Shown: positions 8,211 to 56,500, counted from the stretch's first letter. The stretch: DNA of 64,000 nucleotides from Blastocatellia bacterium (GCA_046565505.1 JBKHYJ010000015.1:13600-77599), one strand, 5' to 3'. Notes: a model not told the origin generated them from the letters alone. Translations and numbers: made by a program.

Positions 8211-8242
8211 TTCCGCAAGCCTCGCTATGTTGAGTCCGGTCG

Positions 8243-38646: not shown

Positions 38647-40598
38647 GCCTGGACACGAAAGTCATGTCGCCCGACGAGGCGCGTGCGGCCGACCCGGCCG
38701 AAGAGCGCGAGCGCCGCAAGCTAGAAGAGACCTGGCGCACGCCCCCGGGGCTGCTCGGGTGGTTTATGACCACCAACCATAAGTCCATCGCCAAGCGCTA
38801 CATCGTCACCGCTTTCATCTTCTTTCTCCTCGGCGGGCTAGAGGCCGCGGCGATGCGCCTTCAGCTGTCGCGGCCCGAGAACCGATTCCTGGGGCCGGAC
38901 CTCTACAATCAGATTTTCAGCATGCATGGCACGACGATGATGTTCCTGTTCGCGGTCCCGATCATGGAGGCGATGGGGCTCTACTTCGTGCCGCTGATGA
39001 TAGGGACGCGCAACGTCTCCTTCCCGCGCATGAACGCCTATGGCTATTACGCCTACCTGATCGGCGGGCTGTTGCTGTACGTCGGCTTCGTGCTCGGGAT
39101 AGGGGTGGACACGGGCTGGTTCAGCTACGTGCCGCTCTCGGGGCCGGATTTTTCGCCCGGCAAGAGGGTCGATTTCTGGGCGCAGATGATAACCTTCACG
39201 GAGATAGCGGCGCTGGTGTCGGCCGTGGAGATAATCGTCACGGTGTTCAAGCAGCGGGCGCCCGGCATGTCGCTCAATCGCGTCCCGCTGTTCGTGTGGG
39301 CGATGGTCGTGACATCTTTCATGGTGTTGTTCGCCATGCCCGCCATCATGCTCGCAAGCTCGATGCTGGCGATGGACAGGCTCGTCAGCACACACTTCTT
39401 CAACCCGGCCGAAGGCGGCGACGCGATACTGTGGCAGCACCTCTTCTGGTTCTTCGGCCACCCGGAAGTCTACATCATCTTCATACCCGCGACGGGGATG
39501 GTTTCGACCATCCTGCCCGCGTTCACGCGCCGCGGCGTCTTCGGGTACACGGCCCTCGTGCTGTCGCTCGTGGCGACGGGGTTCATAGGCTTCGGCCTGT
39601 GGGTTCACCACATGTTCGCCACGGACGTGCCGCAGCTCGGGCAGAGCTTCTTTACGGCCGCCAGCGTAATGATCGCCGTCCCGAGCGGGATACAAATCTT
39701 CTGCTGGATAGCGACGCTGTGGGGCGGGAAGCTTCACCTGAAAACGCCCCTGCTGTTCGTGCTCGGGTTCGTCGCGCTGTTCGTGCTGGGCGGGCTGACG
39801 GGCGTGATGCTGGCGGCGGTGCCGCTGGACCTCCAGGTGCACGACACGTATTTCGTGGTCGCGCACTTCCACTACGTGCTGATAGGGGGCGCGGTCTTCC
39901 CGCTCTTCGGGGCTTTCTATTACTGGTTCCCGAAGTGGACGGGCCGCATGCTCGACGAGCGAATGGGCAGGTGGAATTTCTGGCTGATGTTCATCGGGTT
40001 CAACGTCACTTTCTTCCCCATGCACCAGCTCGGGCTCAGGGGAATGCCCCGGCGGGTCTACACCTACCTCGAAGGGAACGGGTGGGACGGCATGAACCTG
40101 ATCGCGTCAGCGGGCGCGGCCATCATCGCCGCGAGCGTGCTGGTTTTTCTCATCAATGTTTTCAAGAGCCGCGGCGGCGGCCTCGCGGCGGGGGGGGACC
40201 CCTGGGGTTCCGACACGCTCGAATGGGCCACGGCCTCGCCCCCGCCGGACTATAACTTCCAATACATCCCGACGGTGAACGGGCGCGAGGCGCTGTGGAC
40301 CCGCGACGAGGAGACGCCGGTCGTCACAGGGCTCCGCAGCGAGTGCCGGGAGGTGCTGATTACCAAGACGCTCGACGCGGAGCCCGACCACAGGCACGAG
40401 CTGCCCGGCCCGTCCATCTGGCCGCTGGTGCTCGCGCTCGCGACAGGCTTCACGTTCATCGCCGGCATATTCACCCCGTGGGCCTTCCCCATCGGCGCGG
40501 TCTTGAGCCTGGCGGCCCTCGTCGGGTGGTTCTGGTCAGGCAACGAAGCGAAGAATTACCCGCCGCACGAAGGCGGGCCATCGGAGAGCCCGACATGA
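38643..40598 (+). CDS. ctaD: cytochrome c oxidase subunit I (heme-copper oxidase, type A) with C-terminal extension
   Basis: GHPEVYIIFIPATGMVS, WVHHMF and HFHYVLIGG motifs. Its start overlaps the coxB stop (ATGA). Confidence 0.9.
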   Translation: MSLDTKVMSPDEARAADPAEERERRKLEETWRTPPGLLGWFMTTNHKSIAKRYIVTAFIFFLLGGLEAAAMRLQLSRPENRFLGPDLYNQIFSMHGTTMMFLFAVPIMEAMGLYFVPLMIGTRNVSFPRMNAYGYYAYLIGGLLLYVGFVLGIGVDTGWFSYVPLSGPDFSPGKRVDFWAQMITFTEIAALVSAVEIIVTVFKQRAPGMSLNRVPLFVWAMVVTSFMVLFAMPAIMLASSMLAMDRLVSTHFFNPAEGGDAILWQHLFWFFGHPEVYIIFIPATGMVSTILPAFTRRGVFGYTALVLSLVATGFIGFGLWVHHMFATDVPQLGQSFFTAASVMIAVPSGIQIFCWIATLWGGKLHLKTPLLFVLGFVALFVLGGLTGVMLAAVPLDLQVHDTYFVVAHFHYVLIGGAVFPLFGAFYYWFPKWTGRMLDERMGRWNFWLMFIGFNVTFFPMHQLGLRGMPRRVYTYLEGNGWDGMNLIASAGAAIIAASVLVFLINVFKSRGGGLAAGGDPWGSDTLEWATASPPPDYNFQYIPTVNGREALWTRDEETPVVTGLRSECREVLITKTLDAEPDHRHELPGPSIWPLVLALATGFTFIAGIFTPWAFPIGAVLSLAALVGWFWSGNEAKNYPPHEGGPSESPT

Positions 40599-41203
40599 AG
40601 CAGAGGCCGGCCATAGACGTTTCACACTTGCCGCTTCACGCCTACGGCAGCCACACGACGCTCTGGTGGGGCAACGTGCTGATGTGCGTCATCGAAGGGA
40701 CGATGTTCGCGATAGTCGTCGCGTCCTACTTTTACATCCGCAAGGTGTTCCCCCACTGGCCGCCGCTTAACACGCCGTTCCCGGACCTGCTGCCCGGGAC
40801 CGTTAATACTGTCATCCTGCTTGTGAGCTGTGCGCCGATGGTGTGGGTGCACAGGCTCGCCGTGGGTGAGGGGAGCCAGCGCGCGATTCAGGCCGGGGTC
40901 TTGATATGCATCGCCCTCATGCTGACGTCAATCGCGCTGCGCTGGTTCGAGTTCCCGCGGATGTTTTCTCAGTGGGACTCGAACGCTTATGGGTCGATCA
41001 CCTGGACGGCGCTCGGCTTACACCTCGGCCACCTGCTTGCCGCCACGGCGGAAGCCTCCGTGCTCGCCGCATGGATGTTCACGCATGAGCTTGACGAGAA
41101 GCACAGGCTGGACCTCAACATGCTGGCTCTCTACTGGTATTTCGTGGTCGGCGCGTGGGCTATACTTTACCCCGTCCTCTATTTCGGGCCTCGCCTGCTG
41201 TAG
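40595..41203 (+). CDS. cytochrome c oxidase subunit III-family membrane protein
   Basis: Its start overlaps the ctaD stop (ATGA at 40595-40598). It has 5 TM helices. The HAYGSHTTLWWGNVLMCVIEG pattern is typical of subunit III. Confidence 0.65.
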   Translation: MKQRPAIDVSHLPLHAYGSHTTLWWGNVLMCVIEGTMFAIVVASYFYIRKVFPHWPPLNTPFPDLLPGTVNTVILLVSCAPMVWVHRLAVGEGSQRAIQAGVLICIALMLTSIALRWFEFPRMFSQWDSNAYGSITWTALGLHLGHLLAATAEASVLAAWMFTHELDEKHRLDLNMLALYWYFVVGAWAILYPVLYFGPRLL

Positions 41204-41222
41204 CGCCGCGGAGGGATCAGAA

Positions 41223-41600
41223 GTGACGGCCGAGACGAAAAAAGATACCTCGAATGGCGGAAGGCTCTTGAACCTGTGGGCGGGGCTGTTCGCCGCGCCT
41301 GTCGCATGGCTGGTCGAGCTACAGCTCCACTACATGCTGGTCCCGTGGGCCTGCTCGACCGGGCGTCACTTCGTCTTGCACCTGATCACAGTCGCGGCCC
41401 TGCTGGTCGCCGTGGTAGGGGGCGTACTGGCCTGGCAGGGTTGGCGGCAGTCCGGGCCTGGGTGGCCCGATGGCTCCGGCGGCCCCGCGCCGCGCAGCCG
41501 GTTTATGGCCGTAACGGGGCTGCTGCTCAGCGCGCTCTTTTTCTTCGTAATACTGGCGCAGGGAATCCCCATCTTCGTCTTGAACCCATGTCAGCAGTGA
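41223..41600 (+). CDS. small 3-TM membrane protein, possible caa3 oxidase subunit IV-like
   Basis: A GTG start follows a GGAGGGA RBS. The call rests on position within the oxidase operon and on hydrophobicity only. Confidence 0.35.
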   Translation: MTAETKKDTSNGGRLLNLWAGLFAAPVAWLVELQLHYMLVPWACSTGRHFVLHLITVAALLVAVVGGVLAWQGWRQSGPGWPDGSGGPAPRSRFMAVTGLLLSALFFFVILAQGIPIFVLNPCQQ

Positions 41601-42556
41601 CCAGGAAAATGCCGCGCCCTTCGCCCCGCCGGCCGGCGCTCGCCCTCTCCTTCGTTGCGGCGCTCGCGGGCGACGCGCTGGCGCACGGGGGCAAGCCGCA
41701 CGGGCCGGGCGACCTCCTGACGACCTGGGGCCTGGAGCCGGTCGTGCTGGTGGGGCTTGCGCTCGCCGGCTGGCTTTACGTACGAGGCGTGAGGCGGCTG
41801 TGGCGGGAGTCTTCCGCGGGCCTCGGCATTCGCAGGTGGGAGGCCGCGTGTTACGCGGCCGGGTGGCTCGCGCTGTTCGTCGCGCTCGTGTCCCCGCTCC
41901 ACCCGATGGGGAGCGTGCTGTTCTCCGCGCACATGACTCAGCATGAAGTGCTGATGCTGGTCGCCGCGCCGCTACTGGTGCTGGGCCGCCCCCTGATCGC
42001 TTACCTGTGGGCGCTGCCCGTGCGGTGGCGGCGCAAGGCGGGCCGTGTCGGGAAAGTCGGCTGGGTGGGGGCGAGCTGGCATGCCGTCACGAACCCGCTC
42101 GCGGCATGGGCGATTCACGCGGTGGCGCTGTGGGTGTGGCATGCGCCGGCGCTCTTTCAGGCGACGCTCAAAAGCGAGCTGGTCCATACAACACAGCACC
42201 TGACCTTTCTACTTTCCGCGCTGCTGTTCTGGTGGGCGCTCATACACGGGCGCCACGCGCTGATGGGGTACGGCGCGGCGGTGCTCTACATGTTCACCAC
42301 GTCCGTACACAGCGGGGTCCTGGGGGCGCTGCTGACGTTCGCCTCTTCGGTGTGGTATCCGGCTTACTCGGCGACGACCGAGTCGTGGGGGCTCACGCCC
42401 CTCGAAGACCAGCAGCTCGGCGGGCTGATAATGTGGGTGCCGGCGGGCCTGGTCTACCTCTTCGCGGGCCTCGCGCTGTTCGCCGGGTGGCTGCGCGAAT
42501 CGGAGCGCAGGGTCTTGAGGCGCGAGGGCCGGCCCGGGTCATACAGTGAGGGTTAA
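41588..42556 (+). CDS. ctaG: cytochrome c oxidase assembly factor CtaG (caa3-type, PF09678-like)
   Basis: A multi-TM protein with a conserved HMTQHEVLM segment, downstream of the oxidase subunits. ORF 41276..42556, trimmed to the ATG at 41588. Confidence 0.6.
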   Translation: MSAVTRKMPRPSPRRPALALSFVAALAGDALAHGGKPHGPGDLLTTWGLEPVVLVGLALAGWLYVRGVRRLWRESSAGLGIRRWEAACYAAGWLALFVALVSPLHPMGSVLFSAHMTQHEVLMLVAAPLLVLGRPLIAYLWALPVRWRRKAGRVGKVGWVGASWHAVTNPLAAWAIHAVALWVWHAPALFQATLKSELVHTTQHLTFLLSALLFWWALIHGRHALMGYGAAVLYMFTTSVHSGVLGALLTFASSVWYPAYSATTESWGLTPLEDQQLGGLIMWVPAGLVYLFAGLALFAGWLRESERRVLRREGRPGSYSEG

Positions 42557-42562
42557 AACAAA

Positions 42563-43567
42563 ATGCGAGTGACGCGCCGATTCGTCCTGGCCTGCTGCCT
42601 TGCGGCGGCCGTCTGTGCACAAGCCCTGCCGGCCGCCGGCCGTCAGAGGGCGCCCGCGTTCGCCTACGTGAGCAACGAGCGGGATGGGACGGTAACGGTC
42701 ATCAACACGGCTACCGACGCGGTGGTCTCTACGATCCGCGTGGGCGGGCGGCTGCGCGGCATACAACTGAGCCCGAACGGCAAGAGGCTGTACGTCGCGA
42801 TGACTTACCCGTCCAATCGCAGGGAGAGCGAGACCGACAAGATCGTCGCCATCGACGCGGCGAGCGGCAGCGTGATCGCGAAGTACGACGCGGGCAGCGA
42901 CCCCGAACAGTTCGCGGTCAGCCGGGATGGGATGCGGCTCTACACTTCAAACGAGGACGCGGGGACGGCGTCGGTGACGGACCTGCGTACGGGCCGCGTC
43001 ATCGCCACGCATGTGGTCGGGATAGAGCCCGAGGGGGTCGCGCTCAGCCCGGACGGCCGCTGGGTCTACGTGACGGCCGAGAGCAGCAGCAACGTCACGG
43101 TGATAGACACGCGGACGAACAAGGTGAAGGCCACGTTCCCCGTAGGCGCGCGGCCGCGTTGCGCCGCCTTCTCGCCCGACGGGCTGCGCGCCTACGTGAC
43201 GGCCGAGAATGGCGGGACGGTGTCGGTCGTCAACACGGCTACGCACAAGGTTATCGACACGATCGAATTGCCGCGCGGGCAGGTCAAACCCATGGGCATA
43301 GCGGTGTCGCGCGATGGCAGGCGCATCTACGTCACCAATGGGCGGGGGAATTCGGTGGCGGTCATCGACAGCAGGAGCCGCAAGGTCATGGCGATGGTCC
43401 CGGTGTCGCAGCGCCCCTGGGGCATCGCCATCACCCCCGACGGCAGGAAGATTTACACGGCCAACGGGCTGTCGAACGACGTGGCCGTTATAGACGCGGC
43501 CACCAACAGAGTAATCACGACCGTCAAGGCGGGTGACGGGCCGTGGGGGATCGCGATGAGCCATTGA
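42563..43567 (+). CDS. YVTN-family beta-propeller repeat protein (PQQ-dependent catabolism-associated beta-propeller type)
   Basis: A signal peptide plus seven repeats of about 40 aa ending in YV(T/A) (AYVSNERDGTVTVINTAT..., LYVAMT..., VYVTAESSSNVTVIDTRT..., AYVTAENGGTVSVVNTAT..., IYVTNGRGNSVAVIDSRS..., IYTANGLSNDVAVIDAAT). Confidence 0.75.
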   Translation: MRVTRRFVLACCLAAAVCAQALPAAGRQRAPAFAYVSNERDGTVTVINTATDAVVSTIRVGGRLRGIQLSPNGKRLYVAMTYPSNRRESETDKIVAIDAASGSVIAKYDAGSDPEQFAVSRDGMRLYTSNEDAGTASVTDLRTGRVIATHVVGIEPEGVALSPDGRWVYVTAESSSNVTVIDTRTNKVKATFPVGARPRCAAFSPDGLRAYVTAENGGTVSVVNTATHKVIDTIELPRGQVKPMGIAVSRDGRRIYVTNGRGNSVAVIDSRSRKVMAMVPVSQRPWGIAITPDGRKIYTANGLSNDVAVIDAATNRVITTVKAGDGPWGIAMSH

Positions 43568-43596
43568 CGCTCCGCGTCGCCGGCCGAGGGGGCACT

Positions 43597-44145
43597 GTGT
43601 CAAGAAATAACGGGCCTTGGGTCATAAACGAAACGACTCTGAAATACCGGAACGATTTCATAGAAGTTAATGAAGACCGCGTCATCAGGCCCGACGGCGA
43701 GCCCGGCACTTACGCGACGGTTGACATGAAGGCGGGGCTTGCCGTCCTTCCCGTGGGTGAAGACCGCAGCGTATACCTGACCAGACAGTTCCGCTACGCC
43801 ATAGGGAGGGAGAGCATAGAGGTCGTAGGCGGGGCCATAGATGAGGGCGAGGACGCGGAGGCGGCGGCGAGGCGGGAGCTTCGAGAAGAGGTCGGGATCG
43901 AGGCCGGGGAGTTGACCCCGATGGGCGTTATCAACATAGACACTTCAATAGTTGACGGGGCCGTGAGTCTGTTCCTCGCCAGGCGGTTGAGATTTACCGA
44001 GCCGGACCGGGAAGGCACCGAAGTCATAAAGCCCCTGAGGGTGACTCTCGACGAAGCCGTGAATATGGTTATGAGCGGAGAGATAAACCAGGGCACGAGC
44101 TGCGTCCTGATACTGAAGGCCGGCAATTACCTGGGCGCGCGGTAG
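43597..44145 (+). CDS. NUDIX hydrolase
   Basis: Nudix box GGAIDEGEDAEAAARRELREEVGIEAG. ORF 43543..44145; a GTG at 43597 follows GAGGGGG and avoids overlapping the upstream stop, but the start is uncertain. Confidence 0.65.
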   Translation: MSRNNGPWVINETTLKYRNDFIEVNEDRVIRPDGEPGTYATVDMKAGLAVLPVGEDRSVYLTRQFRYAIGRESIEVVGGAIDEGEDAEAAARRELREEVGIEAGELTPMGVINIDTSIVDGAVSLFLARRLRFTEPDREGTEVIKPLRVTLDEAVNMVMSGEINQGTSCVLILKAGNYLGAR

Positions 44146-44266
44146 CGGGCGTTCTTGTCCTGGTTTTAATTCGGCGGCTTTTAACCCTTTGAGGTGTTTA
44201 TTACTTACCCTGCTATGCCCTCTATCGCCGTGCGCGGCAGATTGATCGCGGGCGAAAGCCCGCGCC

Positions 44267-46942
44267 TCAGACGGCCCTCCCGGCCGCCACGTCCATCCTG
44301 ATGTTATCATCCCTAAGCGTCGGCACGGGTGCCGCGTCGTAGTGCTTGAGCAGCTCCAATATCGGCTCGAGCTTGTCATAAAATACGACGACGATCTCGC
44401 CCTCATCCATGCTCCGAATCGCGTATTCGATGGCCTCCGTTTCATTAAGCACGATGGAGCATTCGCGCTCGGGCGCTTCGCCCTTGACCGCCTCGCATAG
44501 CAGCCCGGCGACCTCCCCCTTGGCTCGGCCGCGCAGGTCCTTGTCTTCCTTAATGATGATGCGGTGGAGGCCCTTTGCCGCCACCTGGCCCGCCTGCCTG
44601 ATGATGGAGTCCGCCCTGTCGCCGGGCACGCCTATCACGCCCGTGACTTTTCGCCCGCGCCAGAGCGACGCCATGCGACAGACGGATTTAAACGCGTCGG
44701 CGTTGTGGCCGTAGTCCAGCATGAGGTGGCCGGGGCCCACGCGGAAGACGTTGGCCCTGCCGGGGTTCTGCGCGTCGTTCCTGAAGCCCGCGATTGCGGA
44801 AGCCGCCTGCTTTCTTGTCACGCCGTAGGCGCGGCTGGCCGCCATCGCCGCGAGCACGTTCGCGACCTGAAATTCGGCCGTGCCCTGCATCGTCACGGGA
44901 ACGTCCGACACCTGGATGATCCTGTGCTCCGCCCTGTGCGCCGACTCTATGATCCAGCCATTCTTAACGAAATATGCGGTGCCGCCCGCCGCCGTGTGCC
45001 TCTTAATCAAGAGGTGATTATTGCGCGTCGAAAAATAGACCACATGTTTTTTGATGGCGTTAACGCGGGGGTCTTCGGCCAGCCGCGCGAGGCGTTCGTC
45101 GTCGGCGTTGAGCACCAGCGTCCCGCCTTCTCTCACGCGCTCGGCCACGAGCGACTTTATGCGCACCAGGTCGTCCACGGATTTGATCCCGTCCTGCCCT
45201 ATGTGGTCCGGCTGTACGTTGGTCATCACGGATACGTCCGACCAGTCGTAGCCGAGCCCCCTGCGCGCGATGCCTCCGCGCGCGGTCTCAAGCACGGCCA
45301 CCTCGACGGCCGGGTCGCACAGAATCGTCCTCGCCGAGTGCGGGCCGGTCGTGTCGCCTTTAACGACGCGCTCCCCGGCGATGTATATGCCATCGGTGGT
45401 CGTCACCCCGACCGCGCGCCCCGACTCGGCTATGACATGAGCGATCATGCGGGTCACGGTCGTCTTGCCGTTCGTGCCCGTTATCGAAATGATGGGGATT
45501 CTCGCGGGCTCGCCCGGCGGGTATAGCATGTCCACGATGGCGGCGGCCACGTCGCGGCTGCGCCCTTCGCTCGGGTAATGATGCATGCGCAGCCCCGGGG
45601 AGGCGTTGACCTCTATCACGCCGCCGCCTTCTTCCGGCGGCTCGATAATGTCTCTCAGGACCAGGTCCACGCCGCAGATGTCCAGGCCGATGACTCGCGC
45701 GACCCTCTCGCAGAGCCGCCTGACCTCCGGGTGAACGACGCCCGTAACGTCTTTGGCCGTGCCGCCCGTCGAGAGGTTTATCCCCTCCCTCAGGAACACC
45801 ACCTCTTCTTTCTTCGGGATGTGGTCCAGGCTGAGCCCCGCCTTACGCAGGTGCGCCAGCAGTATCGGGTCCGCCTTGATGCGCGTGAGCGGCTTTTCGT
45901 GCCCATCGCCGCGGCGCGGGTCTTCATTCGTAATGTCGATCAATTGCTTTACCGTGTGCCGCCCATCGCCGGTGACGTGAGCGGGAAGCCGCTCGCTGGC
46001 GGCGATCATCTCGCCGCCGACCACTACCACCCTGTAGTTCCGCCCGACGAATAATTCCTCGACCAGGACGCTCGGGGATATCTCGCGCGCGATCCTGTAG
46101 GCCTGGGCCACTTCCCCCGGCGTCGTGAGGTTGAGCGAAACGCCCTTCCCCTGGCACCCGTCGAGCGGCTTCACGACGACGGGTGCGCCGAGAATTCCCA
46201 GGGCCCGTAACGCCTCGGCCTCCGACCCGGCCACCATGCCGCGCGGGACCGGGATCGAAGCTGCCTCCAGAATGGACTTGGTCAATTCCTTGTTCCCGGC
46301 TATCTCCATCGCGATTGCGCTCGTCTGCTCTGACATGGCCGCCTGTATGTACTTGCGGTTCTTCCCGTAGCCGAGTTGCACGAGGCTGTCGCCGTTGACG
46401 CGGACCCACGGGATGCCGCGCCGCGCGGCGGCGTCTACAATCGCTTTCGTGGTCGGGCCGAACTCCGTCCTGGCGACGATGCGGCGGGCCTCTTCCACTT
46501 TTTCGTCGAGCGCGAACGGCTCGCCCTTTATGACGGCTTCGACGAGCCTGACGGCGGCCTCAAGGAGGTGGCGCGTGCCTTTCTCCGCCTCGTACTCCAC
46601 GACGACGTTATAGCAGCAGGGCTCGTCGGCCTCACTGGTCCTGCTGTGACGCGCGGCGATACCCGCGCGGCCGGCCATCTCCACCGCGACATGCTCGACG
46701 ACATGGCCCACGTGCGTGCCTCCGTTGAGCAGCGCGACGAAGCCGCCCGGCTCGCCCGTGTCGCACCGGTGGTCGGCGAGGCCCGGCAGCAGGTCGAGCA
46801 GGCGCGCGACGAACCCATCAATCTCGTGGCTCTGTCTTTCGCACAGGTCGCCGAGGCAGAGCCGCATCACGAGCGCGGGTTTATGACTGTAGATATTCGG
46901 GCCGGCCAGCGTCCGCATCCTTTCGATCCTCATCGCGATCAC
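44267..46942 (-). CDS. cphA: cyanophycin synthetase
   Basis: 891 aa. An N-terminal ATP-grasp domain and a C-terminal Mur-ligase domain (ISITGTNGKTT). Long stretches closely resemble cyanobacterial CphA (MRIERMRTLAGPNIYS..., VLETARGGI..., DYGHNADA...). Confidence 0.9.
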   Translation of the reverse strand: MIAMRIERMRTLAGPNIYSHKPALVMRLCLGDLCERQSHEIDGFVARLLDLLPGLADHRCDTGEPGGFVALLNGGTHVGHVVEHVAVEMAGRAGIAARHSRTSEADEPCCYNVVVEYEAEKGTRHLLEAAVRLVEAVIKGEPFALDEKVEEARRIVARTEFGPTTKAIVDAAARRGIPWVRVNGDSLVQLGYGKNRKYIQAAMSEQTSAIAMEIAGNKELTKSILEAASIPVPRGMVAGSEAEALRALGILGAPVVVKPLDGCQGKGVSLNLTTPGEVAQAYRIAREISPSVLVEELFVGRNYRVVVVGGEMIAASERLPAHVTGDGRHTVKQLIDITNEDPRRGDGHEKPLTRIKADPILLAHLRKAGLSLDHIPKKEEVVFLREGINLSTGGTAKDVTGVVHPEVRRLCERVARVIGLDICGVDLVLRDIIEPPEEGGGVIEVNASPGLRMHHYPSEGRSRDVAAAIVDMLYPPGEPARIPIISITGTNGKTTVTRMIAHVIAESGRAVGVTTTDGIYIAGERVVKGDTTGPHSARTILCDPAVEVAVLETARGGIARRGLGYDWSDVSVMTNVQPDHIGQDGIKSVDDLVRIKSLVAERVREGGTLVLNADDERLARLAEDPRVNAIKKHVVYFSTRNNHLLIKRHTAAGGTAYFVKNGWIIESAHRAEHRIIQVSDVPVTMQGTAEFQVANVLAAMAASRAYGVTRKQAASAIAGFRNDAQNPGRANVFRVGPGHLMLDYGHNADAFKSVCRMASLWRGRKVTGVIGVPGDRADSIIRQAGQVAAKGLHRIIIKEDKDLRGRAKGEVAGLLCEAVKGEAPERECSIVLNETEAIEYAIRSMDEGEIVVVFYDKLEPILELLKHYDAAPVPTLRDDNIRMDVAAGRAV

Positions 46943-47811
46943 CTCTTCTTTGGCTGCCTCCGCGCCTTCTTCGCCTTGGAGGGCTTGTCGTCGGTGGGGG
47001 ATTCTTCGGTTGCGATAGGCCTCCGGGTATTCAGGTCGAACCGGGACCCGGCCGGCAGGACGTGGACCTTCACGTCGAACAGGGCGAGAGAGCCGCCCTC
47101 TTCGAGGTCGGGTAAATTCGTATGCGAGATGGCTCCCGCATCTATGACGGTGACCGCGCCCTCGCCGATCACGTCGAAGTGGCTGTCGGTGATGACCAGG
47201 GCCGTGTTCTCGTCAATGCCGAGCCCGAGGTCCTGCGGGAAGTGAGCCACGCCTGTCAGCAGGCGCCCGAGGCGGCCTCGCTGCGAGAAGTGTGTGTCGA
47301 TGATCGTCCCGATCAGGAAGTCCATGCCGGGCCCGATCTCGACGCGGCCGAAGCGCGGGGTCTCGTCGCGGTCCCCGCTGATTATCATTGAATTGCCCAT
47401 CATAGAGGCCCCGGCGCTGGTCCCCGCGACGACGACCCCCTTTTGGAATTTCCGAAAAAGCGACTGGTGCAGCCTGCTGCCACCGAGCAGCGCCGTGATG
47501 TGTAGCTGGTCGCCGCCGGTGAAGAATATCCCCGTCGCGTCCTCGACCGCTTTGATGCCCGCCTCCGACTGCGCGTCCTCTCTTTTGGACACGTCTACGA
47601 TTCGTACGTCATCTACCCCGAGCTTCTTGAACGCTTCGGTATATTCGCGGCCTAGCTCTTCGACAAGGTTCGTGGCGACCGTCATGACGACGATCCTGGC
47701 TTTCGGCCCCTTCGCAAGTCGGAGGAATTCTTTGAGAATCACGCAGTCGTTCTCCCTGTCTTCCGCGCCGCCTATGGCTATTAACTTTCCGTCAGTCCGT
47801 ATCAGTTCCAT
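46939..47811 (-). CDS. cphB: cyanophycinase (S51 peptidase)
   Basis: LIAIGGAEDRE and the catalytic Ser region AGTSAGASMMG. Its stop overlaps the cphA start by 4 nt. Confidence 0.85.
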   Translation of the reverse strand: MELIRTDGKLIAIGGAEDRENDCVILKEFLRLAKGPKARIVVMTVATNLVEELGREYTEAFKKLGVDDVRIVDVSKREDAQSEAGIKAVEDATGIFFTGGDQLHITALLGGSRLHQSLFRKFQKGVVVAGTSAGASMMGNSMIISGDRDETPRFGRVEIGPGMDFLIGTIIDTHFSQRGRLGRLLTGVAHFPQDLGLGIDENTALVITDSHFDVIGEGAVTVIDAGAISHTNLPDLEEGGSLALFDVKVHVLPAGSRFDLNTRRPIATEESPTDDKPSKAKKARRQPKKR

Positions 47812-47914
47812 ACCGATCCGATGCTCCTGTTGTCGCCCGCCCGCGCCTCACCCCCTGCGGGCTCCCGAGTCATTAAGAGCGCCCTTGCCACCGCTCTCTA
47901 TGCTTCTATCTATC

Positions 47915-47936
47915 CAGGTTGATTTCGCAGGTTGAT
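47915..47936. promoter_or_regulatory. direct repeat CAGGTTGAT x2 (13-bp register) upstream of cphB
   Basis: Two exact 9-bp copies about 100-125 nt upstream of the cphB start codon, inside the cphB/iadA divergent spacer. Confidence 0.3.
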
Positions 47937-48803
47937 GCCGCAGACGGTTCCGATGAATGTGAGTCTTGATCGTGCGGGGCCAAATATGTCTAGCGCCTGG
48001 GCCATGCAGGTTCAGAAACGTCAGCTCGTCTGCAATAATTCGGCCCGCTTATTTGTAAACACAATCCGCGGATGACCGTTGATTCCCGCCTCTCTCCCCG
48101 CACGGCTATCCGTCGTCAACCGTGCAGAGGCTTGATTGATCCCCTCCTGATGTCTTTGCCAAACAACTCCTGTATGCGCATGGGCGCTAACGTAAACGGC
48201 AACTCCCGTACCAATTCCCGCGCGCGCCATGCCCTTATTCTCAAACCGGGCCGCGCGCAAAGGGCTCGCGAAAAAAATGCTGTGATTTCGCACGTTTATC
48301 ATCCGCCCGTTAGGGCGATTCGGGCGCGCCGTCGCGTTGTGAATGTGAACCTTTTTGATGTCTATGTCGAAAAGGTGCTCTCGTATGAGACGTTAAAGTC
48401 GTGGGAGCACCAGTCCCGTACGACTTCGCCTGCGCGCGTGGGGATGCGGCCTCTCGGCTGGCGCGGGGTGAGAGCGAATCGAGGGCGGTGCGTGGCACAG
48501 TTTGCCTCATCGCGTTACCATTTCGCCACTGCCCGTCCGCATGAAGCGGCCTTGCGCGCCTCCTGATGCTCATAACGAGCGGCATACTTTCTGCTCTTGG
48601 AATCGGAGTAATGCTTACCCATTGCGAGGGAGCGAGGCGTAGTATTCTTAGGCCCGCGTTATCTGAACGGTCTTCTCTGTACTTTGTCTTTCTACTTGCT
48701 GTGTTCCTCCTCTTCTTCATAGGGCCGTGGGGGCGGTTGCTCGCCCCCCGGCCCATTTTTGCGCGCCCGGCTAAGCGACGGGGTGACTGCTTAGGAGACG
48801 GAC

Positions 48804-49958
48804 ATGCTGACCTTAATCGAGAATGGCGAAATCTATGCCCCCGAGCCTCAAGGGCGGGATACGATCCTATTGGCGGATGGGAAGGTGGCAAAAATAGGCG
48901 GCGTTGACCGGCGCGCTTTGCAGCCCCTGGGGCTCGAAGTCGAGGTCATAGACGCCGCGGGCTGCGTGGTCACGCCGGGCTTCATAGACCCTCACGAACA
49001 CCTCCTCGGCGGCAGCGGCGAGAAGGGCTTCAGCACCCAGACGCCGGAGATATATTTGAGCGAGATCGTCTGCGCGGGCATAACGACGGTCGTCGGCTGT
49101 CTTGGCGTGGACACTACGATGAAGACCATGCCGGGGCTGCTCGCCAAGGCGAAGGGCTTGAAAGAAGAGGGCGTGTCCGCCTTCATATGGTCCGGGGGCT
49201 ACACTGTGCCGCCTACGACTATCATGAAGACGATCCGCGACGACATCCTGTTCATAGAAGAAGTGATAGGCGCGGGCGAGGTCGCAATCTCCGACGAGCG
49301 CTCCACGGAGCCTCGCCTGCGCGAGCTTGCCAGGCTCGTGTCGGACGCGCACGCGGGTGGCATGCTGAGCGGGAAAGCCGGCGTCACGCATTTTCACACG
49401 GGAGGGGGGAGCGAACGTCTGTCACTGCTGCGCGACCTGCTTGACGGGTACGAGATAGAGCCCGGCTGGCTTTACGCCACGCATGTCGGGCGGAGCCAAT
49501 CATTAATGGAAGAAGCGATAGGGCTCGCCCACAGAGGGTGCTTCGTCGATGTGGACACGGTCGAGGAGGACTTGCCGAAGTGGCTCGGGTTCTACCTGGA
49601 GCGGGGCGGAAACCCCGACCAGCTCACCGCCTCTTCGGACGCCTCCATCACGAGCCCGCGCAACCTGTACGAGCAGGTGCGGGCCTGCGCCGTAGGGCAT
49701 GGCTTCCCGGTCGAGCAGGTGTTGAAGCTTGTAACGTCGAACACCGCGCGGGCGTTGAGGCTGGAAAATAAGGGCAGGCTCGAAGCGGGCAAGGACGCGG
49801 ACGTGCTCGTGCTGAAGAAAGGCTCGCTTGAGGTCGTGGACGTGATCGCGGGCGGCAGGCGAATGGTCAGTCGCGGGGAGATCGCAATCACAGAGAAATT
49901 CCTGGAGGACAGCAACCGCTCCATTACGCTCAGGGGTAGGAAAACGGGGCGCGGTTGA
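48804..49958 (+). CDS. iadA: isoaspartyl (beta-aspartyl) dipeptidase, amidohydrolase superfamily
   Basis: GFIDPHEHLLGG metal-binding motif, and overall conservation to IadA across the full length. Confidence 0.85.
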   Translation: MLTLIENGEIYAPEPQGRDTILLADGKVAKIGGVDRRALQPLGLEVEVIDAAGCVVTPGFIDPHEHLLGGSGEKGFSTQTPEIYLSEIVCAGITTVVGCLGVDTTMKTMPGLLAKAKGLKEEGVSAFIWSGGYTVPPTTIMKTIRDDILFIEEVIGAGEVAISDERSTEPRLRELARLVSDAHAGGMLSGKAGVTHFHTGGGSERLSLLRDLLDGYEIEPGWLYATHVGRSQSLMEEAIGLAHRGCFVDVDTVEEDLPKWLGFYLERGGNPDQLTASSDASITSPRNLYEQVRACAVGHGFPVEQVLKLVTSNTARALRLENKGRLEAGKDADVLVLKKGSLEVVDVIAGGRRMVSRGEIAITEKFLEDSNRSITLRGRKTGRG

Positions 49959-50165
49959 GAGCGCCGGTTTAGTGCGTCAGCTCGCACGGAGGCCATCAAG
50001 ATTTCGGATCAGGGCGGACCGTCGCATAGCCCCCGCCCCGGTAGAGACGAGCCGGCCTCGCCCGGGCCTAACCTTAGTGTGCAAGAGAACAGGGGAATGG
50101 CGTTCGATTAATACAGCCCGGTAGATTGCTTCTGGCAACCATCACTCACATCCCGGAGTTGTTAG

Positions 50166-50744
50166 ATGCGAACTACGGTATTGATCCTTGTGCTCCTTCT
50201 CTTGCCCCTGACCGCCGCGGCCCAGCAGACGCCTAAAGTCGAGTTATTCGGCGGCTATTCTTACTTCCGCAACGAGGGCGGCTCGGGCCTTCATGGGTGG
50301 AACGGCTCGGTCGCGGCCAACCTTAACAAGTGGTTCGGACTTGTAGCGGACGTTTCGGGCCATTACGACTCCAGGTCATTTCGGTTCACGGACGTGCGCG
50401 GCAACGTGGGCCTGTTCGATGGCAGAACTAACAGGCACACGATTCTGATCGGGCCGCGCTTCTCTTACCGCAACAGCAGCCGCTTAGTCCCATTCGCCCA
50501 TGCGCTGGTCGGGGTGACCCGCGTGCATGAAGAAACGACAAACCTCGCGACTGATTTCTCCGCAGTCTTTAGAGGGAATAATTCTGGCTTCGCGATGGTC
50601 GCGGGCGGGGGGCTGGACGTGGGAATGAGCCGAAACCTGGCCCTTCGAGTAATACAGGCCGATTACTTCGTGACTCGCATTTTCGGGACGCAACACAACA
50701 CGCGCATATCCGTAGGGCTCGTGTTCCGGCCCGGCTCAAGGTAA
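50166..50744 (+). CDS. outer-membrane beta-barrel protein (OmpW/opacity-like porin family)
   Basis: A signal peptide ending AAAQQ, alternating amphipathic beta-strands, and the C-terminal aromatic residues F-x-F/V-F. Confidence 0.7.
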   Translation: MRTTVLILVLLLLPLTAAAQQTPKVELFGGYSYFRNEGGSGLHGWNGSVAANLNKWFGLVADVSGHYDSRSFRFTDVRGNVGLFDGRTNRHTILIGPRFSYRNSSRLVPFAHALVGVTRVHEETTNLATDFSAVFRGNNSGFAMVAGGGLDVGMSRNLALRVIQADYFVTRIFGTQHNTRISVGLVFRPGSR

Positions 50745-51099
50745 GAAGGCGCTATGCGTCGCCATATCCTCATAACCCCTACGGTAATTTTCACGGCATT
50801 CGGGCGAGCACCGTCACGCCCTGCCCCTAGCCCGCGGGCCGCACGCCCGCAGGCTTTGCCTGAGGTGCTCGCCCGAATTAGTCTTGTCGCCCCGCCGCTC
50901 GACCGGGCTCCTTCGCCGACCGAGCTTTAATACCATGTTTTGAATGCGCCTGCCTCGCGGGGCCGCGGACGGCCCATTCTTCTCCGCCCCCTGTTTTATC
51001 TTTTGCCTGCCGCGGCGGGCGGAGTAATATTTCAAATCTAAAACGAGATTCGAATAGAATTCGTAAACGCTTTAGCTTCGGCCCGGCGGGCGAGGGGGT

Positions 51100-53502
51100 G
51101 TGGGGATGCGAAGATTCAGGAGCTTTCGGAACACAGTTTTTAATGCCCTGCTGGTGAGCTTCGCACTGATACCGGCTTTCAATCACTCTGTGATCTCGGC
51201 GGGCGTCCAGCGGCCGCGCGCGGATGGCCGCGCGGGCTACGGGCCTGTGATTGAAATGCTTGAGCGTTTCATCGAGCGCGAGATGGTCGATAAGCAACTA
51301 CCCGCGCTTTCGATAGCGCTCGTCGATGACCGTCAGACCGTCTGGGCGAAGGGTTTTGGCTTCGCCGACCCGAAAGATAAAACGCCCGCCACGGCCGATA
51401 CTGTTTACCGCGTGGGGTCCGTGTCGAAGCTCTTCACGGACATCGCCGTCATGCAGCTAGTGGAGCGGGGAAACCTAGACCTGGACGCGCCCGTGAGCAG
51501 GTACCTCCCGGACTTCAGCCCGCGCAACCCTTTCGGCAAGCCCGTCACGCTGAGGCAGCTAATGTCGCACCGCTCGGGCCTCGCCCGCGAATCGCCCGTG
51601 GGCAGCTATTTTGACCCGACGGAGCCTTCGCTCGCGCGCACGGTCGCGAGCCTTAATAAGACTTCCCTCGTTTACGAGCCTGAGACGCGCAGCAAGTACT
51701 CGAACGCCGCCATCGCGACGGTCGGCTACGTGCTTGAGCGCACGCAGGGGCAGCCGTTCGCCAGATACTTGAAGCGCGCCGTGCTCGACCCGCTCGGCCT
51801 CGCGCACAGCAGTTTCGAGCCTTCGCCGGAGGTCAATGGCAAGCTCGCGAAAGCTTTCATGTGGACCCTCGATGGCCGCGTCTTCGACGCGCCGACCTTT
51901 CAGCTCGGCATCAGCCCGGCCGGGAGCATGTACACTACAGTCACGGACCTGGCGCGCTTTATGAGCGCGTTGTTTGCCGGGGGCGAAGGCGCGAACGGGC
52001 GGATTCTCAATCCGGCTACGCTCGAGCAGATGTGGACGCCGCAGTACGCGGCACGAGGCCAGAAGGCCGGCTTCGGCATAGGCTTTCATGTGGCGGAGGT
52101 TGACGGGCACCGACAGGTCGGGCACGGCGGGGCCATCTATGGGTTTGCCACTTCGCTTGAGGCCCTGACCGAAGACAAGCTCGGCGTCGTGGTCGTCACC
52201 ACGAAAGACTCCGCCAACGCGGTGACGAATCGAATAGCCGGCATAGCTTTGAAAGCCATGCTCGCGGCCCGCGAAGGCAAGGCCGTCGCGCCGCCGGAAA
52301 TCAATCCGCCCGTAGAGCCCGCACTCGCGCGCAGGGTCGGCGGGCGGTACGTGAGAGGCGATAAAGGAATCGACCTGATCGAAAGCGGCGGCGGGCTCTC
52401 CGCGCTCGCGATGGGCGGCGGCGAGCCCGTGCGGCTTCGGGCGGCCGGGGCCGCGCTCATAGCCGACGACCTGCTCGGCTACGGCGCGACGATTACTGTG
52501 CGCGGCGACGAGCTGGTCGCCGGCGGCGAGACGTTCAAGCGAGTCCCCGTCGTCAAGCCCGCGCCCGCGCCGAAGCAGTTTGAAGGGCTGATAGGCGAGT
52601 ACGGATGGGACCACGACATTCTGTATATACTTGAGAAGGACGGGAAGCTCTGGGCGCTGATAGAGTGGTTTGAATTCGACCCTCTCGAACAAGTTTCGGA
52701 GGATGTCTTCAGGTTCCCGAGCCGCGGGCTTTACGATGGCGAGCGGCTCGTTTTCAAGCGAGACGCGAGAGGCCGCGCGACGGAGGTCGAGGCGGCGAAC
52801 GTCGTATTCAAGCGCCGTGCGGTGGGGCCGGAGGATGGCGCGCCGCAACTACGAGTCGCGCCCCTGCGGCCCGTCAGCCTGTTGTTAAAGGAAGCCCTGG
52901 CGGCCTCGCCGCCGCGAGAGAGCGGCGATTTCCGCGAGCCGGAGCTTGTGGAACTCGCGCGGCTCGACCCGACCATCAAGCTGGATATTCGTTACGCGAC
53001 CACGAATAATTTCCTGGGCAGCGCCTTCTACTCGGAGGCGCGCGCCTTCATGCAGAGGCCGGCGGCGGAGGCGCTCGTTCGCGCGCACCGCAAATTGAGA
53101 GGGCAAGGATTCGGGCTGCTCGTACACGACGCCTACAGGCCGTGGTACGTGACGAAGGTTTTCTGGGACGCGACGCCGGACGACAAGAAGGTTTTTGTGG
53201 CGGACCCCGCGAAAGGCTCGCGGCACAACCGCGGCGCGGCGGTCGACCTCACGCTTTACGATTTGAAGACGGGCTCGCCCGTCGAGATGGTTAGCACTTA
53301 CGACGAGACGACCGACCGCGCCTACCCGGATTACCCGGGCGGCACGTCGCTGCAACGGTGGCACAGGAAACTGTTGCGCGACGCGATGGAGGCCGAAGGG
53401 TTCACGGTGTATGAAGCCGAGTGGTGGCACTTCGATTACAACGACTGGCGCAAGTACCGAATCGGCAACGTGCCCTTCGATAAGATAAGAGCCGCTAGGT
53501 AA
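51100..53502 (+). CDS. fusion protein: serine beta-lactamase/DD-peptidase-like (PF00144) domain - middle domain - C-terminal VanX-type D-Ala-D-Ala dipeptidase (M15D) domain
   Basis: The N-terminal domain carries S-x-x-K (SVSKLF), Y-S-N and HGG motifs. The C-terminal 200 aa carry the VanX zinc and catalytic motifs SRHNRGAAVDLTL and EWWHFDY, plus LDIRYATTNNF. Signal peptide. Confidence 0.8.
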   Translation: MGMRRFRSFRNTVFNALLVSFALIPAFNHSVISAGVQRPRADGRAGYGPVIEMLERFIEREMVDKQLPALSIALVDDRQTVWAKGFGFADPKDKTPATADTVYRVGSVSKLFTDIAVMQLVERGNLDLDAPVSRYLPDFSPRNPFGKPVTLRQLMSHRSGLARESPVGSYFDPTEPSLARTVASLNKTSLVYEPETRSKYSNAAIATVGYVLERTQGQPFARYLKRAVLDPLGLAHSSFEPSPEVNGKLAKAFMWTLDGRVFDAPTFQLGISPAGSMYTTVTDLARFMSALFAGGEGANGRILNPATLEQMWTPQYAARGQKAGFGIGFHVAEVDGHRQVGHGGAIYGFATSLEALTEDKLGVVVVTTKDSANAVTNRIAGIALKAMLAAREGKAVAPPEINPPVEPALARRVGGRYVRGDKGIDLIESGGGLSALAMGGGEPVRLRAAGAALIADDLLGYGATITVRGDELVAGGETFKRVPVVKPAPAPKQFEGLIGEYGWDHDILYILEKDGKLWALIEWFEFDPLEQVSEDVFRFPSRGLYDGERLVFKRDARGRATEVEAANVVFKRRAVGPEDGAPQLRVAPLRPVSLLLKEALAASPPRESGDFREPELVELARLDPTIKLDIRYATTNNFLGSAFYSEARAFMQRPAAEALVRAHRKLRGQGFGLLVHDAYRPWYVTKVFWDATPDDKKVFVADPAKGSRHNRGAAVDLTLYDLKTGSPVEMVSTYDETTDRAYPDYPGGTSLQRWHRKLLRDAMEAEGFTVYEAEWWHFDYNDWRKYRIGNVPFDKIRAAR

Positions 53503-53599
53503 CCGCCGCGCAGGGCTCGCGCGCCTTCCGCGGCCGCGCGACCCGGCGGCGGGTTTTTGCGGCGCGGCATGTAGATCATGTTTTAGAGGAGAAGTTACG

Positions 53600-56500
53600 A
53601 TGAAGAGAGCGGTGTTGTGGACGATCACGTTCTTATTGGCCCTGGCGGGGGCGAGCCACGGGCAGACGGGAAAGCTTCTGCTGTTGCAAAAGCCCACGTT
53701 GAGCAAGACTCACGTAGCGTTCGCTTACGCGGGGGACTTGTGGATAGTGAGTAGGGAAGGCGGCGACGCCGCGCGCTTGACGACGGGAACGGGCGTCGAA
53801 ACCGACCCGATCTTTTCGCCCGACGGCAGCCTGATAGCCTTCACGGGGGAGTACGATGGCAACGTAGATGTTTACGTCGTCGCGGCCGGCGGCGGCATAC
53901 CGAAGCGATTGACTTATCACCCCGGCGCCGACGTCGCGGTCGGCTGGACGGCCGACGCCAAGCAGGTGCTATTCCGCTCGGGCCGCAACAGCCCGTTCCC
54001 CGTCCCGCGCCTCTTCACCATGCCGGTCGATGGAGGGTTCCCCGCGGAGGTGCCTCTGCCGATGGCCGACAGCGGGAGCTATTCGCCCGACGGGACGCGG
54101 CTCGCCTACGTGCCGACCACGCAGTGGCAGCAGGCGTGGAAGCGTTACCGCGGCGGGCAGACGAGCCCCATCTGGCTGGCTAACCTTTCGGATTCGAGCG
54201 TCGAAAAGATACCGCGCGAGAACTCGAATGATTCATACCCGATGTGGGTCGGCGACCGCGTCTACTTCCTCTCCGACCGCAATGGGCCGACGACGCTGTT
54301 CGGTTACGACATCGCGACGAAAAAAGTCACGCAGTTGATCCGCAACGAGGGCCTGGACATCAAGTCGGCGTCGGCGGGACCGGGCGCGATCGTCTACGAG
54401 CAGTTCGGCTCGCTTCATTTATACGATCTGAATTCGGGGAAGGCGCGGAGGCTGGACGTACGCATAGCCGGCGACATGCCTGGCGTCCGCCCGCGGTTCG
54501 AGAAGGTGGCGGCCCGCATAGCGTCGGTGGGCCTTTCGCCCACGGGCGCGCGGACGGTATTCGAGGCGCGCGGCGAAATCTTGACGGTCCCTGCGGAGAA
54601 GGGCAGCGCGCGCAACCTAACAAACACCTCCGGGGTGGCGGAGCGCGACCCCGCCTGGTCGCCCGACGGCAAATGGATAGCTTATTTCTCCGACGAGTCC
54701 GGCGAGTACGAGCTACACCTTCGAGACCAGACAGGGATGGGCAACGTGCGAAAGATCAACCTGGGCAACCCGCCCTCGTTCTATTACTCGCCCACCTGGT
54801 CGCCCGACAGCAAAAAGATCGCTTACACGGACAAGCGGTTGAACCTCTGGTACGTCGACCTGGATAAGGGCGCGCCCGTGAAAGTAGACACCACAGCCTA
54901 CGAGAACCCCTGGCGGGTCTTCGACCCCGTGTGGTCGCCCGACAGCCGTTGGCTGGCCTACACGAAGCAGCTCGATAATCACCTGGGCGCGGTCTTCCTC
55001 TACTCGCCCGAAACGGGCAAGAGCCACCAGATTACGGATGGCCTGAGCGACGCGCGCTTCGCGACTTTTGATAAGGGCGGAAAATACCTCTACTTCACGG
55101 CGAGCACGGACATAGGCCCCACCACGGGGTGGCTAGACATGTCCAGCTTCAATCACCCGGTCACGCGCAGCGTCTACGTGGTCGTGCTCAGGAAAGACTT
55201 GCCCTCCCCGCTCGCGCCCGAAAGCGACGAGGAGAAGGTGCAGGAGGCGCAAAAGGCTGCGGACGCCGCCGCACAGCCGGGGGCGGGCGGGGATAAGCCC
55301 GCCGAGAAGAAAGAGCCCGTCACGGTGACGATTGACCTGGATAACATCGGGCAGCGCGTACTCGCTCTGCCGATCCCCGCGCGGAACTACACGGGGATGG
55401 AAGCGGGGAAGGCGGGCATACTTTACCTGCTCGAAGTCGCGCCGGGCGTGGGCGACCTGTTCGGCGGCGGCCCCCAGACGCTACACAAGTTCGAGCTTGA
55501 GAAGCGCAAGATGGATAAAGTCATTGAAGGCATCAACGCCTTTCTACTCTCGGCCAACGGCGAGAAGATGCTCTACCGCCAGGGGCAGGGGTGGTTCATC
55601 GCGGCGACCGCCCAGCCCATTCAGCCCGGCCAGGGCGCGCTCAAGCTCGACGAGATGGAGGTCTACGTGGACCCGCGCGCCGAATGGGATCAGATGTACC
55701 GTGAGGTGTGGCGCATACAGCGGGATTTCATCTACGACCCTGGCCTCCACGGCCTCGACCTCAAGTCCGCGCAGGCGAAGTACAAGCCATACGTGGAGGC
55801 GATAGCTCATCGCGCGGACCTCAACTACCTGTTCACGGAGATGCTCGGCGAGCTTACGGTCGGGCACATGTTCATAGGCGGGGGTGACGCGCCCGCGCCC
55901 AGGAGGGTGAAGGGCGGTTTGCTGGGGGCCGATTTCCGGGCGGAGAACGGGAGGTATCGCTTCGCACGAATCTACAATGGCGAGAACTGGAACCCCGGCC
56001 TGCGCGCGCCCCTGACGCAGCCGGGCGTGAACGTCCAGGCGGGCGAATACCTCCTCGCGGTAAACGGCCGCGAGGTGCGGTCGGCGGACAACGTCTACAG
56101 CTTCTTTGAAGGGACGGCGGGCAAGTCCGTTGTGATAAGAGTCGGCCCGGACCCGGGCGGGGCGGGGGCGCGCGAGGTGACGGTGGTGCCGGTCGAGAGT
56201 GAAACGGGGCTGCGAAATCTCGCCTGGGTCGAAGACAACCGCCGAAAGGTGGACCAGATGAGCGGCGGCCGGCTGGCTTACGTCTACCTGCCTAACACGG
56301 CCGGCGAAGGGTACACGAATTTCAACCGCTATTACTTCGCGCAGATCAACAAAGAGGGGGCCGTCATCGACGAGCGATTCAATGGCGGCGGGACGGCGGC
56401 CGATTACATCATCGATTATATGCGGCGGCCGCTGATGAATTACTGGCAGACGCGCGAGGGCAAGACCTTCACGACCCCCGTCGGCTCGATCTTCGGGCCG

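Follow-up and report, generated by a model that had tools for sequence, protein, structure and literature searches.

A probable cyanophycin turnover locus with a hairpin-less, divergently encoded isoaspartyl dipeptidase and a conserved intergenic module in an uncultured Blastocatellia bacterium

The closest described systems are the clusters in which the genes for cyanophycin synthetase 1 (cphA1), cyanophycinase and isoaspartyl dipeptidase (iadA) lie together in 37 of the 231 complete genomes possessing the whole trio, clustering of cyanophycinase with iadA reaching 21% in RefSeq (Sharon & Schmeing 2023, PMC10206079). In the literature, IadA is viewed as a promiscuous protein-repair enzyme that moonlights in cyanophycin breakdown. 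Cyanophycin genes have also been noted earlier in other Acidobacteriota (PMC8528874). Here we analyze a stretch of 64,000 nucleotides (nt) from a Blastocatellia bacterium (GCA_046565505.1 JBKHYJ010000015.1:13600-77599), called hereafter the window, in which positions 44267 to 49958 carry cphA1, cphB and iadA. This triad is an ordinary new member of a known cluster type. What is distinctive here is an IadA lineage lacking the gate hairpin and mostly linked to cph genes, the divergent layout of the locus and a conserved module combining a sigma-54-type promoter with a candidate leader element.

Three open reading frames (ORFs) were found where a previous sequence-only reading had placed CphA, CphB and IadA, at 44267-46942 (minus strand, 891 amino acids (aa) from a GTG), 46939-47811 (minus strand, 290 aa) and 48804-49958 (plus strand, 384 aa). 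The genes cphB and cphA1 form an operon and iadA is divergent from it, the gap of 992 nt between cphB and iadA agreeing with the distance of about 1 kb given by that reading. It had also proposed that cphA and cphB overlap by 4 nt and that CphA has 891 residues. The tight coupling of the two genes holds, but the overlap is probably not real, since the 891-aa GTG start is a longest-ORF reading. The ATG at 46933 has AGGTGA just upstream, falls on Met1 of the solved CphA1s in the alignment and was chosen as start by the gene predictions of Logan, JGI and NCBI; an exact look-up of the 891-aa version retrieved no record. Most likely, cphA1 thus spans 44267-46933 on the minus strand and encodes 888 aa, the TGA of cphB being followed by 5 nt and then by this ATG. 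In NCBI the products are MFP5260610.1 (cyanophycin synthetase, exactly 888 aa), MFP5260611.1 (cyanophycinase) and MFP5260612.1 ("amidohydrolase family protein"). The host is indeed non-cyanobacterial, the source being an NCBI metagenome-assembled genome named "Blastocatellia bacterium", of the Acidobacteriota, in which the locus lies on a contig of 206 kb. Positions 39434-55684 of the window match a Logan contig of SRR23730088 with 100% identity, and the nearest species-level genomes are Pyrinomonadaceae, with a CphA identity of 57-65%.

The 44267-46942 frame scores 1152 bits against the cyanophycin synthetase family TIGR02068 (curated cutoff 850) and matches in Pfam the N-terminal domain Cyanophycin_syn (PF18921), ATP-grasp families and Mur_ligase_M/C (PF08245, PF02875), which bears out the proposed architecture of an N domain, an ATP-grasp (G) domain and a Mur-ligase (M) domain. 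It aligns end to end (residues 4-866, E=5e-220) with the solved SuCphA1 of Synechocystis sp. UTEX2470 (7LG5). A loss of ATP-grasp or Mur-ligase catalytic residues would argue against a functional synthetase, and we checked for it with the residue lists of PMC9427784 and PMC9262961 in an alignment of 86 CphA1s from related loci; all these residues are intact. In the G domain of TeCphA1, the catalytic and substrate residues are E215, R309, R323, N394, S396, D431, E450 and R458 (PMC9427784). Their counterparts E210, R301, R315, N386, S388, D423, E441 and R449 are all present here and are invariant in the 86 sequences, except at the E210 position, where 56 sequences have Asp and 29 have Glu. The M-domain set consisted of the P-loop GTNGKT and the Mg/ATP residues K499, T500, T522 and E558; in the present protein the P-loop GTNGKTT (486-492), T513, E549 and D576-H577 are all conserved. 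As for the N domain, the motif Cx19HxxEH, which goes with primer independence of CphA1 (PMC9262961), is complete (C57-x19-H77-V-V-E80-H81), as are the equivalents of H57, F67 and E87. The primer-dependence motifs, which had been pointed out as worth checking, therefore predict a CphA1 of the primer-independent type. Finally, the cyanobacterial P-loop residue His267 is replaced by Gln in this CphA1, likewise in 48 of the 86 non-cyanobacterial sequences. We ruled out that this could be a P-loop defect, Gln or Lys being found there in 82 of the 86.

CphB (46939-47811, minus strand) is an S51 cyanophycinase, as had been claimed. It scores 288 bits against TIGR02069 (cutoff 126.6), matches Peptidase_S51 and aligns with the solved cyanophycinases 7UQV (E=5e-69) and 3EN0. 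In these alignments its Ser-His-Glu triad is intact, with S132 in GTSAGA, H174 in DTHF and E201 in GIDENTA, and the arginine cluster QRGRLGRL is also present. No hydrophobic leader was seen when the N terminus of the translation, MELIRTDGKLIAIGGAED, was inspected by eye for a signal peptide, which suggests an intracellular type, unlike CphE. Residues 267-290 (46939-47010, minus strand) form a Lys/Arg-rich C-terminal tail of 24 aa past the S51 domain, ending in KPSKAKKARRQPKKR. We also observed that the final codons of this tail, AAGAAGAGG, double as the ribosome-binding site of cphA, and that the related loci L162, L163 and L166 encode a K/R-rich CphB tail as well.

The product of iadA (48804-49958, plus strand, 384 aa) has as best family match TIGR01975, beta-aspartyl-peptidase (peptidase M38), with 317.3 bits split in two stretches, and it aligns with LmIadA (8DQN) at E=5e-78. 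We compared this IadA and 97 genomic and metagenomic relatives (98 sequences in all) with E. coli IadA, whose binuclear site is made of H68, H70, K162 (or Glu), H201, H230 and D285. The metal ligands H64, H66, E159, H198, H227 and D279 are invariant in all of them, and a bridging Glu, here E159, corresponds to the Type I arrangement of IadA (PMC5517026). The residues of the Asp-moiety site, E73, Y133, R166 and R230 (E77, Y137, R169 and R233 in E. coli), are equally invariant. AlphaFold2, given 60 homologues, produced a model with a predicted local distance difference test (pLDDT) of 90.4 and a predicted template modelling score (pTM) of 0.91. When this model was searched with Foldseek, the top 28 Protein Data Bank (PDB) matches were all IadA (E ~1e-43, template modelling (TM) scores 0.86-0.92), the next family coming only at ~1e-18.

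On the other hand, several features of this protein weigh against a standard IadA. Its score is 14 bits under the curated TIGR01975 equivalog cutoff of 331.25. The substrate-contacting T106 of E. coli is replaced by Val, as in 91 of the 98 members. Above all, the beta14-beta15 hairpin, present in every solved IadA, is deleted in 98 of 98 sequences, 16 residues (E. coli 292-307) being absent right after D279; in the model, strand 274-277 leads directly into helix 286-298. In the Colwellia enzyme CpsIadA, this hairpin is a probable substrate-entry gate and a dimer-dimer contact (PMC5517026). Loss of the hairpin, together with the Val at T106, leaves the substrate range of the protein uncertain. 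Judged by its modeled fold and its active site, the protein is an IadA, albeit a variant below the family cutoff and without the gate, and these two departures explain why NCBI often labels such proteins just amidohydrolase. Altogether, all the three enzymes expected for a full turnover pathway passed the sequence tests with the checked catalytic residues conserved, and IadA passed the fold test in addition.

Gene linkage in relatives points in the same direction. A synteny comparison shows that cphA-cphB-iadA triads recur, as expected from a cluster type that has already been described (PMC10206079). In Pyrinomonadaceae, the nearest family, cphB-cphA-iadA is a single co-directional operon with gaps of 20-60 nt. 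Metagenome loci fetched by IadA alone displayed the orders cphA-iadA-cphB and iadA-cphB-cphA, cphB-iadA without cphA, and divergent pairs. When at least 3 kb could be read on both sides, cphA or cphB stood beside the short iadA in 14 of 18 loci (~78%), and in 12 of 15 when this was extended to at least 5 kb. Judging from gene order, the short IadA lineage seems much more dedicated to cyanophycin than are IadA enzymes at large (14/18 versus ~16-21%). One soil metagenome contig (L114) carries two cphA1 copies (2886-5513 and 7353-9968) flanking the short iadA, in the order cphB-cphA-iadA-cphA. In close relatives, whose IadA is 96, 83, 83, 83, 81 and 79% identical, the layout of the window is kept in all cases, with cphA and cphB on one side and a divergent iadA on the other side of a gene-free spacer of 775-1037 nt. 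The outer neighbors differ among them.

This spacer was studied in an alignment of six distinct orthologous spacers, and its conservation profile was computed over four diverged sequences. The 340 nt proximal to cphB show little conservation and differ in length between sequences; the rest forms a module whose length stays constant at about 510-533 nt. Within the variable part, ~190-230 nt of the cphB leader (47900-48130) are present in the window and in L161 and absent from L162, L163 and L166; the leader of L165 is likewise long. Leaders of cphB thus range from 157 to 403 nt. Coding capacity was rejected: the three largest ORFs (93-193 aa) have no Pfam or NCBIfam match, the GC content by codon position is flat, and in a 113-aa ORF the ATG becomes ACG in L163 and 1-nt indels break the frame. 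Remnants of repeats or mobile elements were discarded as well, only short repeats at chance level being found. By tblastx and blastn, the spacer resembled neither any of 160 related loci nor another part of the window, and searches for known RNA families and tRNAs gave no matches.

The part of the spacer adjoining iadA contains a conserved element of 275 nt (48488-48765, plus strand), a candidate leader or attenuator of iadA. Of its columns 50-73% are invariant, on a par with the flanking genes. Its substitutions lack 3-nt periodicity (p=0.41, versus p=5e-29 for cphB and 1e-30 for iadA), hence we consider it as non-coding. None of the 4227 families of Rfam 15 reached its gathering score in the window, nor E<=1 in 47750-48850. 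Searches with nhmmer and a covariance model (R1) over 855 kb returned just the known copies, and among the related loci scanned the element is confined to six orthologous ones. It includes a CU-rich box of 20 nt, GCTGTGTTCCTCCTCTTCTT (48698-48717, plus strand), which resembles an anti-Shine-Dalgarno sequence and is identical in the six sequences. RNAalifold pairs this box with the GA-rich segment 48621-48640, in a helix whose changes are one-sided and thus support it weakly.

The element ends with an intrinsic terminator (48722-48760, plus strand) made of a 13-bp G+C stem with one bulge, a GGTTGC loop and a run of 5 U. In the six sequences, 4 of 11 stem pairs are altered on both sides yet still paired, the helix (helix 9) is 95.5% paired, and a U-run of 4-6 follows the hairpin in every case; the L165 copy was also called by a terminator scan. 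All six spacers conserve the loop (48745-48750), apart from a single base that differs or is lacking in L166 and L165; such conservation is unusual for a plain terminator. The terminator ends 43 nt upstream of the ATG of iadA, and these intervening 43 nt are unconserved. Such a distance could not accommodate both a promoter and a ribosome-binding site; iadA would therefore be reached by read-through, and the element would act as an attenuating leader. Unfortunately, several observations weigh against this proposal. We found no promoter for the leader, and no sigma-70 promoters at homologous positions. Its predicted fold is no more stable than those of shuffled sequences (z = -1.27 on the plus strand and -1.19 on the minus strand). 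Besides the terminator, the predicted helices are almost devoid of covariation in what are only six sequences. As a separate observation, cphB and iadA are also divergent in the low-GC locus L081 (IadA 66% identical), with an AT-rich spacer of 335 nt (5666-6000) that contains TGTCGAAAGG, to be compared with TGTCGAAAAGG at 48365-48375 of the window, and a terminator-like hairpin lies there at ~90 nt from iadA, on its upstream side. From this one may guess that hairpin-based regulation of iadA extends beyond the clade of the six sequences.

One would also wonder whether the 275-nt element could be a free-standing, trans-acting small RNA (sRNA), the CU box being a seed for ribosome-binding sites such as that of cphA. 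A seed followed by a terminator is a layout typical of sRNAs, and the box is invariant over its 20 nt. Moreover, its 3' part is complementary to the ribosome-binding region of cphA, AAGAAGAGG, of which CCTCTTCTT is the perfect complement at the cphB/cphA junction, and this match is kept in 4 of 5 relatives. However, such complementarity is weak evidence, because purine-rich ribosome-binding sites match any CU-rich string and because the junction is also coding (Lys-Lys-Arg). An sRNA would in addition leave iadA without a visible promoter of its own. The element is always found immediately before iadA, in the same orientation. We keep the sRNA as a possible explanation, although one that we would not favor.

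In the same spacer, a sigma-54-type -24/-12 element, TGGTACGGGAGTTGCC (48198-48213, minus strand), faces cphB-cphA and predicts a transcription start near 48188 and a cphB leader of ~375 nt. The sigma-54 consensus is TGGCAC-N5-TTGC with an exact spacing of GG and GC, and is reportedly the one compiled by Barrios et al. in 1999. A search for TGGYAC-N5-TTGC gave a single match on both strands of the 64 kb, where 0.19 are expected. The element is found with exact spacing in 6 of 6 orthologous spacers, 157-403 nt upstream of cphB, and the L163 spacer carries the textbook form TGGCAC-N5-TTGCA. Islands conserved in the profile and in the alignment lie upstream of it, at 48272-48301 and 48360-48419, the latter including the near-palindrome GAC-N-TTAA-N-GTC at 48389-48400. 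As they are placed where such sites are expected, these islands are candidate sites for a bending protein and an enhancer. Elsewhere in the class, a conserved canonical site, TGGCACGCTCATTGCT, and variants of it occur on the minus strand of the Pyrinomonadaceae loci L001 (1863), L004 (1358), L005 (640) and L022 (3294), which suggests that sigma-54 promoters are in use in this class; the L001 site, the sole one inspected, precedes a gene for a secreted 243-aa protein of unknown function.

On the other hand, neither rpoN nor a gene for an enhancer-binding activator was seen within the 64-kb window, and an ordinary sigma-70 promoter (-35 TTGGTA, 17 nt, -10 AATAAT) could be read before cphB instead. 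This site was called by a promoter scan in L165 and the same reading fits L162 and L166, that is 3 of the 6 sequences. Yet the would-be -10 box is GTTAGC in the window and in L161, and the columns that never vary are precisely TGG-AC and TTGC at exact sigma-54 spacing, neither of which is needed by sigma-70. The sigma-70 promoter appears unlikely to us.

Another hypothesis is that the spacer is used for control at the DNA level only, with sites for activators, repressors or bending proteins, the hairpin being incidental or ending some unrelated read-through. It would account for the missing plus-strand RNA promoter, for the unremarkable folding z-scores on both strands and for the palindromic islands. 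However, 275 nt conserved at the level of coding sequence far exceed the usual arrays of operators, and the element stands 300-560 nt away from the sigma-54 element. In addition, the pairing of the hairpin survives three adjacent double changes, and a U-run is found on the plus strand only. We hold this DNA-level control to be quite unlikely. It is more improbable still that the amidohydrolase would not be a beta-Asp-Arg dipeptidase but would have shifted to longer cyanophycin fragments or an unrelated amide, as its score below the TIGR01975 cutoff, its bare NCBI name, T106V and the deletion in every member of a hairpin known to gate the active site of CpsIadA could suggest, because the six metal ligands and the four residues holding the Asp moiety are invariant, the high-scoring fold matches are IadA structures only, and cph genes adjoin it in ~78% of informative loci, which fits a cyanophycin-derived substrate.

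We thus consider it quite probable that this locus gives an uncultured Blastocatellia bacterium a full pathway for making and degrading cyanophycin. It must be said that the whole case is built on homology and comparative sequence analysis. According to this explanation, CphA1 would polymerize Asp and Arg with ATP, its ATP-grasp domain extending the Asp backbone and its Mur-ligase domain adding Arg, and would make its own primers through the Cx19HxxEH site of its N domain. CphB would then release beta-Asp-Arg from the polymer, and the short Type I IadA, with two metals bridged by Glu159, would cleave this dipeptide into Asp and Arg. The genes cphB and cphA would be co-transcribed and translationally coupled, the ribosome-binding site of cphA lying within the 3' end of cphB. 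Their transcription would start from the putative sigma-54 promoter, which would require an ATP-dependent enhancer-binding activator, plausibly linked to nitrogen status. The gene iadA would be reached only through read-through of the conserved terminator that ends the 275-nt leader, so that the final degradation step would come under separate, conditional control of the attenuation type. Rather than with the GA-rich segment, the CU box may form a helix with the 5' arm of the terminator, which is rich in G; this would provide the logic of alternative hairpins.

A regulatory RNA of this kind is put forward here as a hypothesis. Its most elaborate version is that 48488-48765 would be a new cis-acting RNA sensing a signal derived from cyanophycin or from nitrogen (beta-Asp-Arg, Arg or a bound regulator) and switching the iadA terminator, and that it would form with the sigma-54 promoter of cphBA a dedicated module serving a cyanophycin-specific, gate-less IadA lineage. 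We regard this version as speculative and rather doubtful.

Some neighboring genes deserve mention. An arginase is encoded at 17251-18162 (minus strand), as the sequence-only reading had noticed, and it is real (TIGR01229, 316.7 bits for a cutoff of 227.6). It lies 26 kb from the cph locus, adjoining ddl (D-Ala-D-Ala ligase), and is neither linked to nor part of the cyanophycin locus, although it could possibly serve a downstream use of the Arg set free. Directly after iadA, 50166-50744 (plus strand) encodes a protein of 192 aa that carries a signal peptide and has the character of an outer-membrane beta-barrel; its L161 orthologue has a weak match to PF13505, and a 34%-identical homologue follows cphB in the Pyrinomonadaceae locus L057. 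In view of its beta-barrel look and of this sole weak co-occurrence, we rejected it as a member of the cluster. Further downstream, 51100-53502 (plus strand) encodes an 800-aa fusion of a serine hydrolase of the class-C beta-lactamase/penicillin-binding type (aa 55-374) with a VanX-type D-Ala-D-Ala dipeptidase (aa 613-782), which is also found downstream of iadA in L161 and in the contig P0006. Finally, a 1086-aa GAF-PAS-GGDEF-EAL-PilZ protein, of a type involved in cyclic di-GMP turnover, is encoded at 29171-32431 (plus strand). A 1097-aa protein of the same architecture, presumably its orthologue, is encoded immediately next to cphA in L162; in the window, a block of pyrroloquinoline quinone (PQQ)-dehydrogenase and cytochrome oxidase genes separates the two.

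What could be the benefit of describing one more such cluster? It adds a non-cyanobacterial example in soil Acidobacteriota (Blastocatellia), where storage polymers have been little studied, and its value in this respect is modest. The putative sigma-54 promoter with the terminator-ended leader and the hairpin-less IadA matter more. Little has been described of how cyanophycin genes are regulated in bacteria other than cyanobacteria, and our literature search for sigma-54, RpoN or NtrC control of these genes found no report. As for the hairpin-less IadA, its linkage to cph genes in ~78% of loci makes it a testable case of specialization. Since this short IadA is missed by standard annotation, our data also suggest that cphA genomes seemingly devoid of a dipeptidase have been overcounted.

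A parallel can finally be drawn with the systems already known. The clusters of Sharon & Schmeing (PMC10206079), such as that of Leucothrix mucor DSM 2157 from which LmIadA (8DQN) comes, bring together the same three enzymes within 5 kb, with CphA1 and cyanophycinase likewise adjacent and a Glu-bridged Type I IadA. They differ in that iadA is here divergent behind a conserved spacer of ~1 kb, in an acidobacterial host, and in that the present IadA has no beta14-beta15 hairpin, has T106 replaced by Val and comes from a lineage linked to cph genes in 14 of 18 loci, against 16-21%. CpsIadA of Colwellia psychrerythraea (5XGW; PMC5517026) also has a Glu replacing the carbamylated Lys bridge and shares its fold with our model (TM 0.90-0.92), but its flexible gate (residues 297-312), which contacts the neighboring dimer, is absent here. 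The operons of Pyrinomonadaceae (L001-L032) contain orthologous genes (CphA 57-65% and IadA 61-67% identical) with the same short IadA type; they are, however, co-directional and closely spaced, and the sigma-54 element and the leader element were not found in them. The cphB-cphA operons of Synechocystis and Anabaena share the gene order, the chemistry and a primer-independent CphA1 with Cx19HxxEH, whereas their dipeptidase is IaaA and not IadA, encoded elsewhere by iaaA, and their P-loop has His267 where Gln is found here. Cyanobacteria are not known to have sigma-54. As to the leader, terminator-based 5' leaders such as riboswitches, T-boxes and protein-mediated attenuators also consist of a conserved non-coding stretch that ends in a terminator before a catabolic gene, and the CU box has, as in these, a possible alternative pairing partner. 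Unlike them, the element matches none of the 4227 Rfam families, and it is by its layout that it becomes a candidate for this class.

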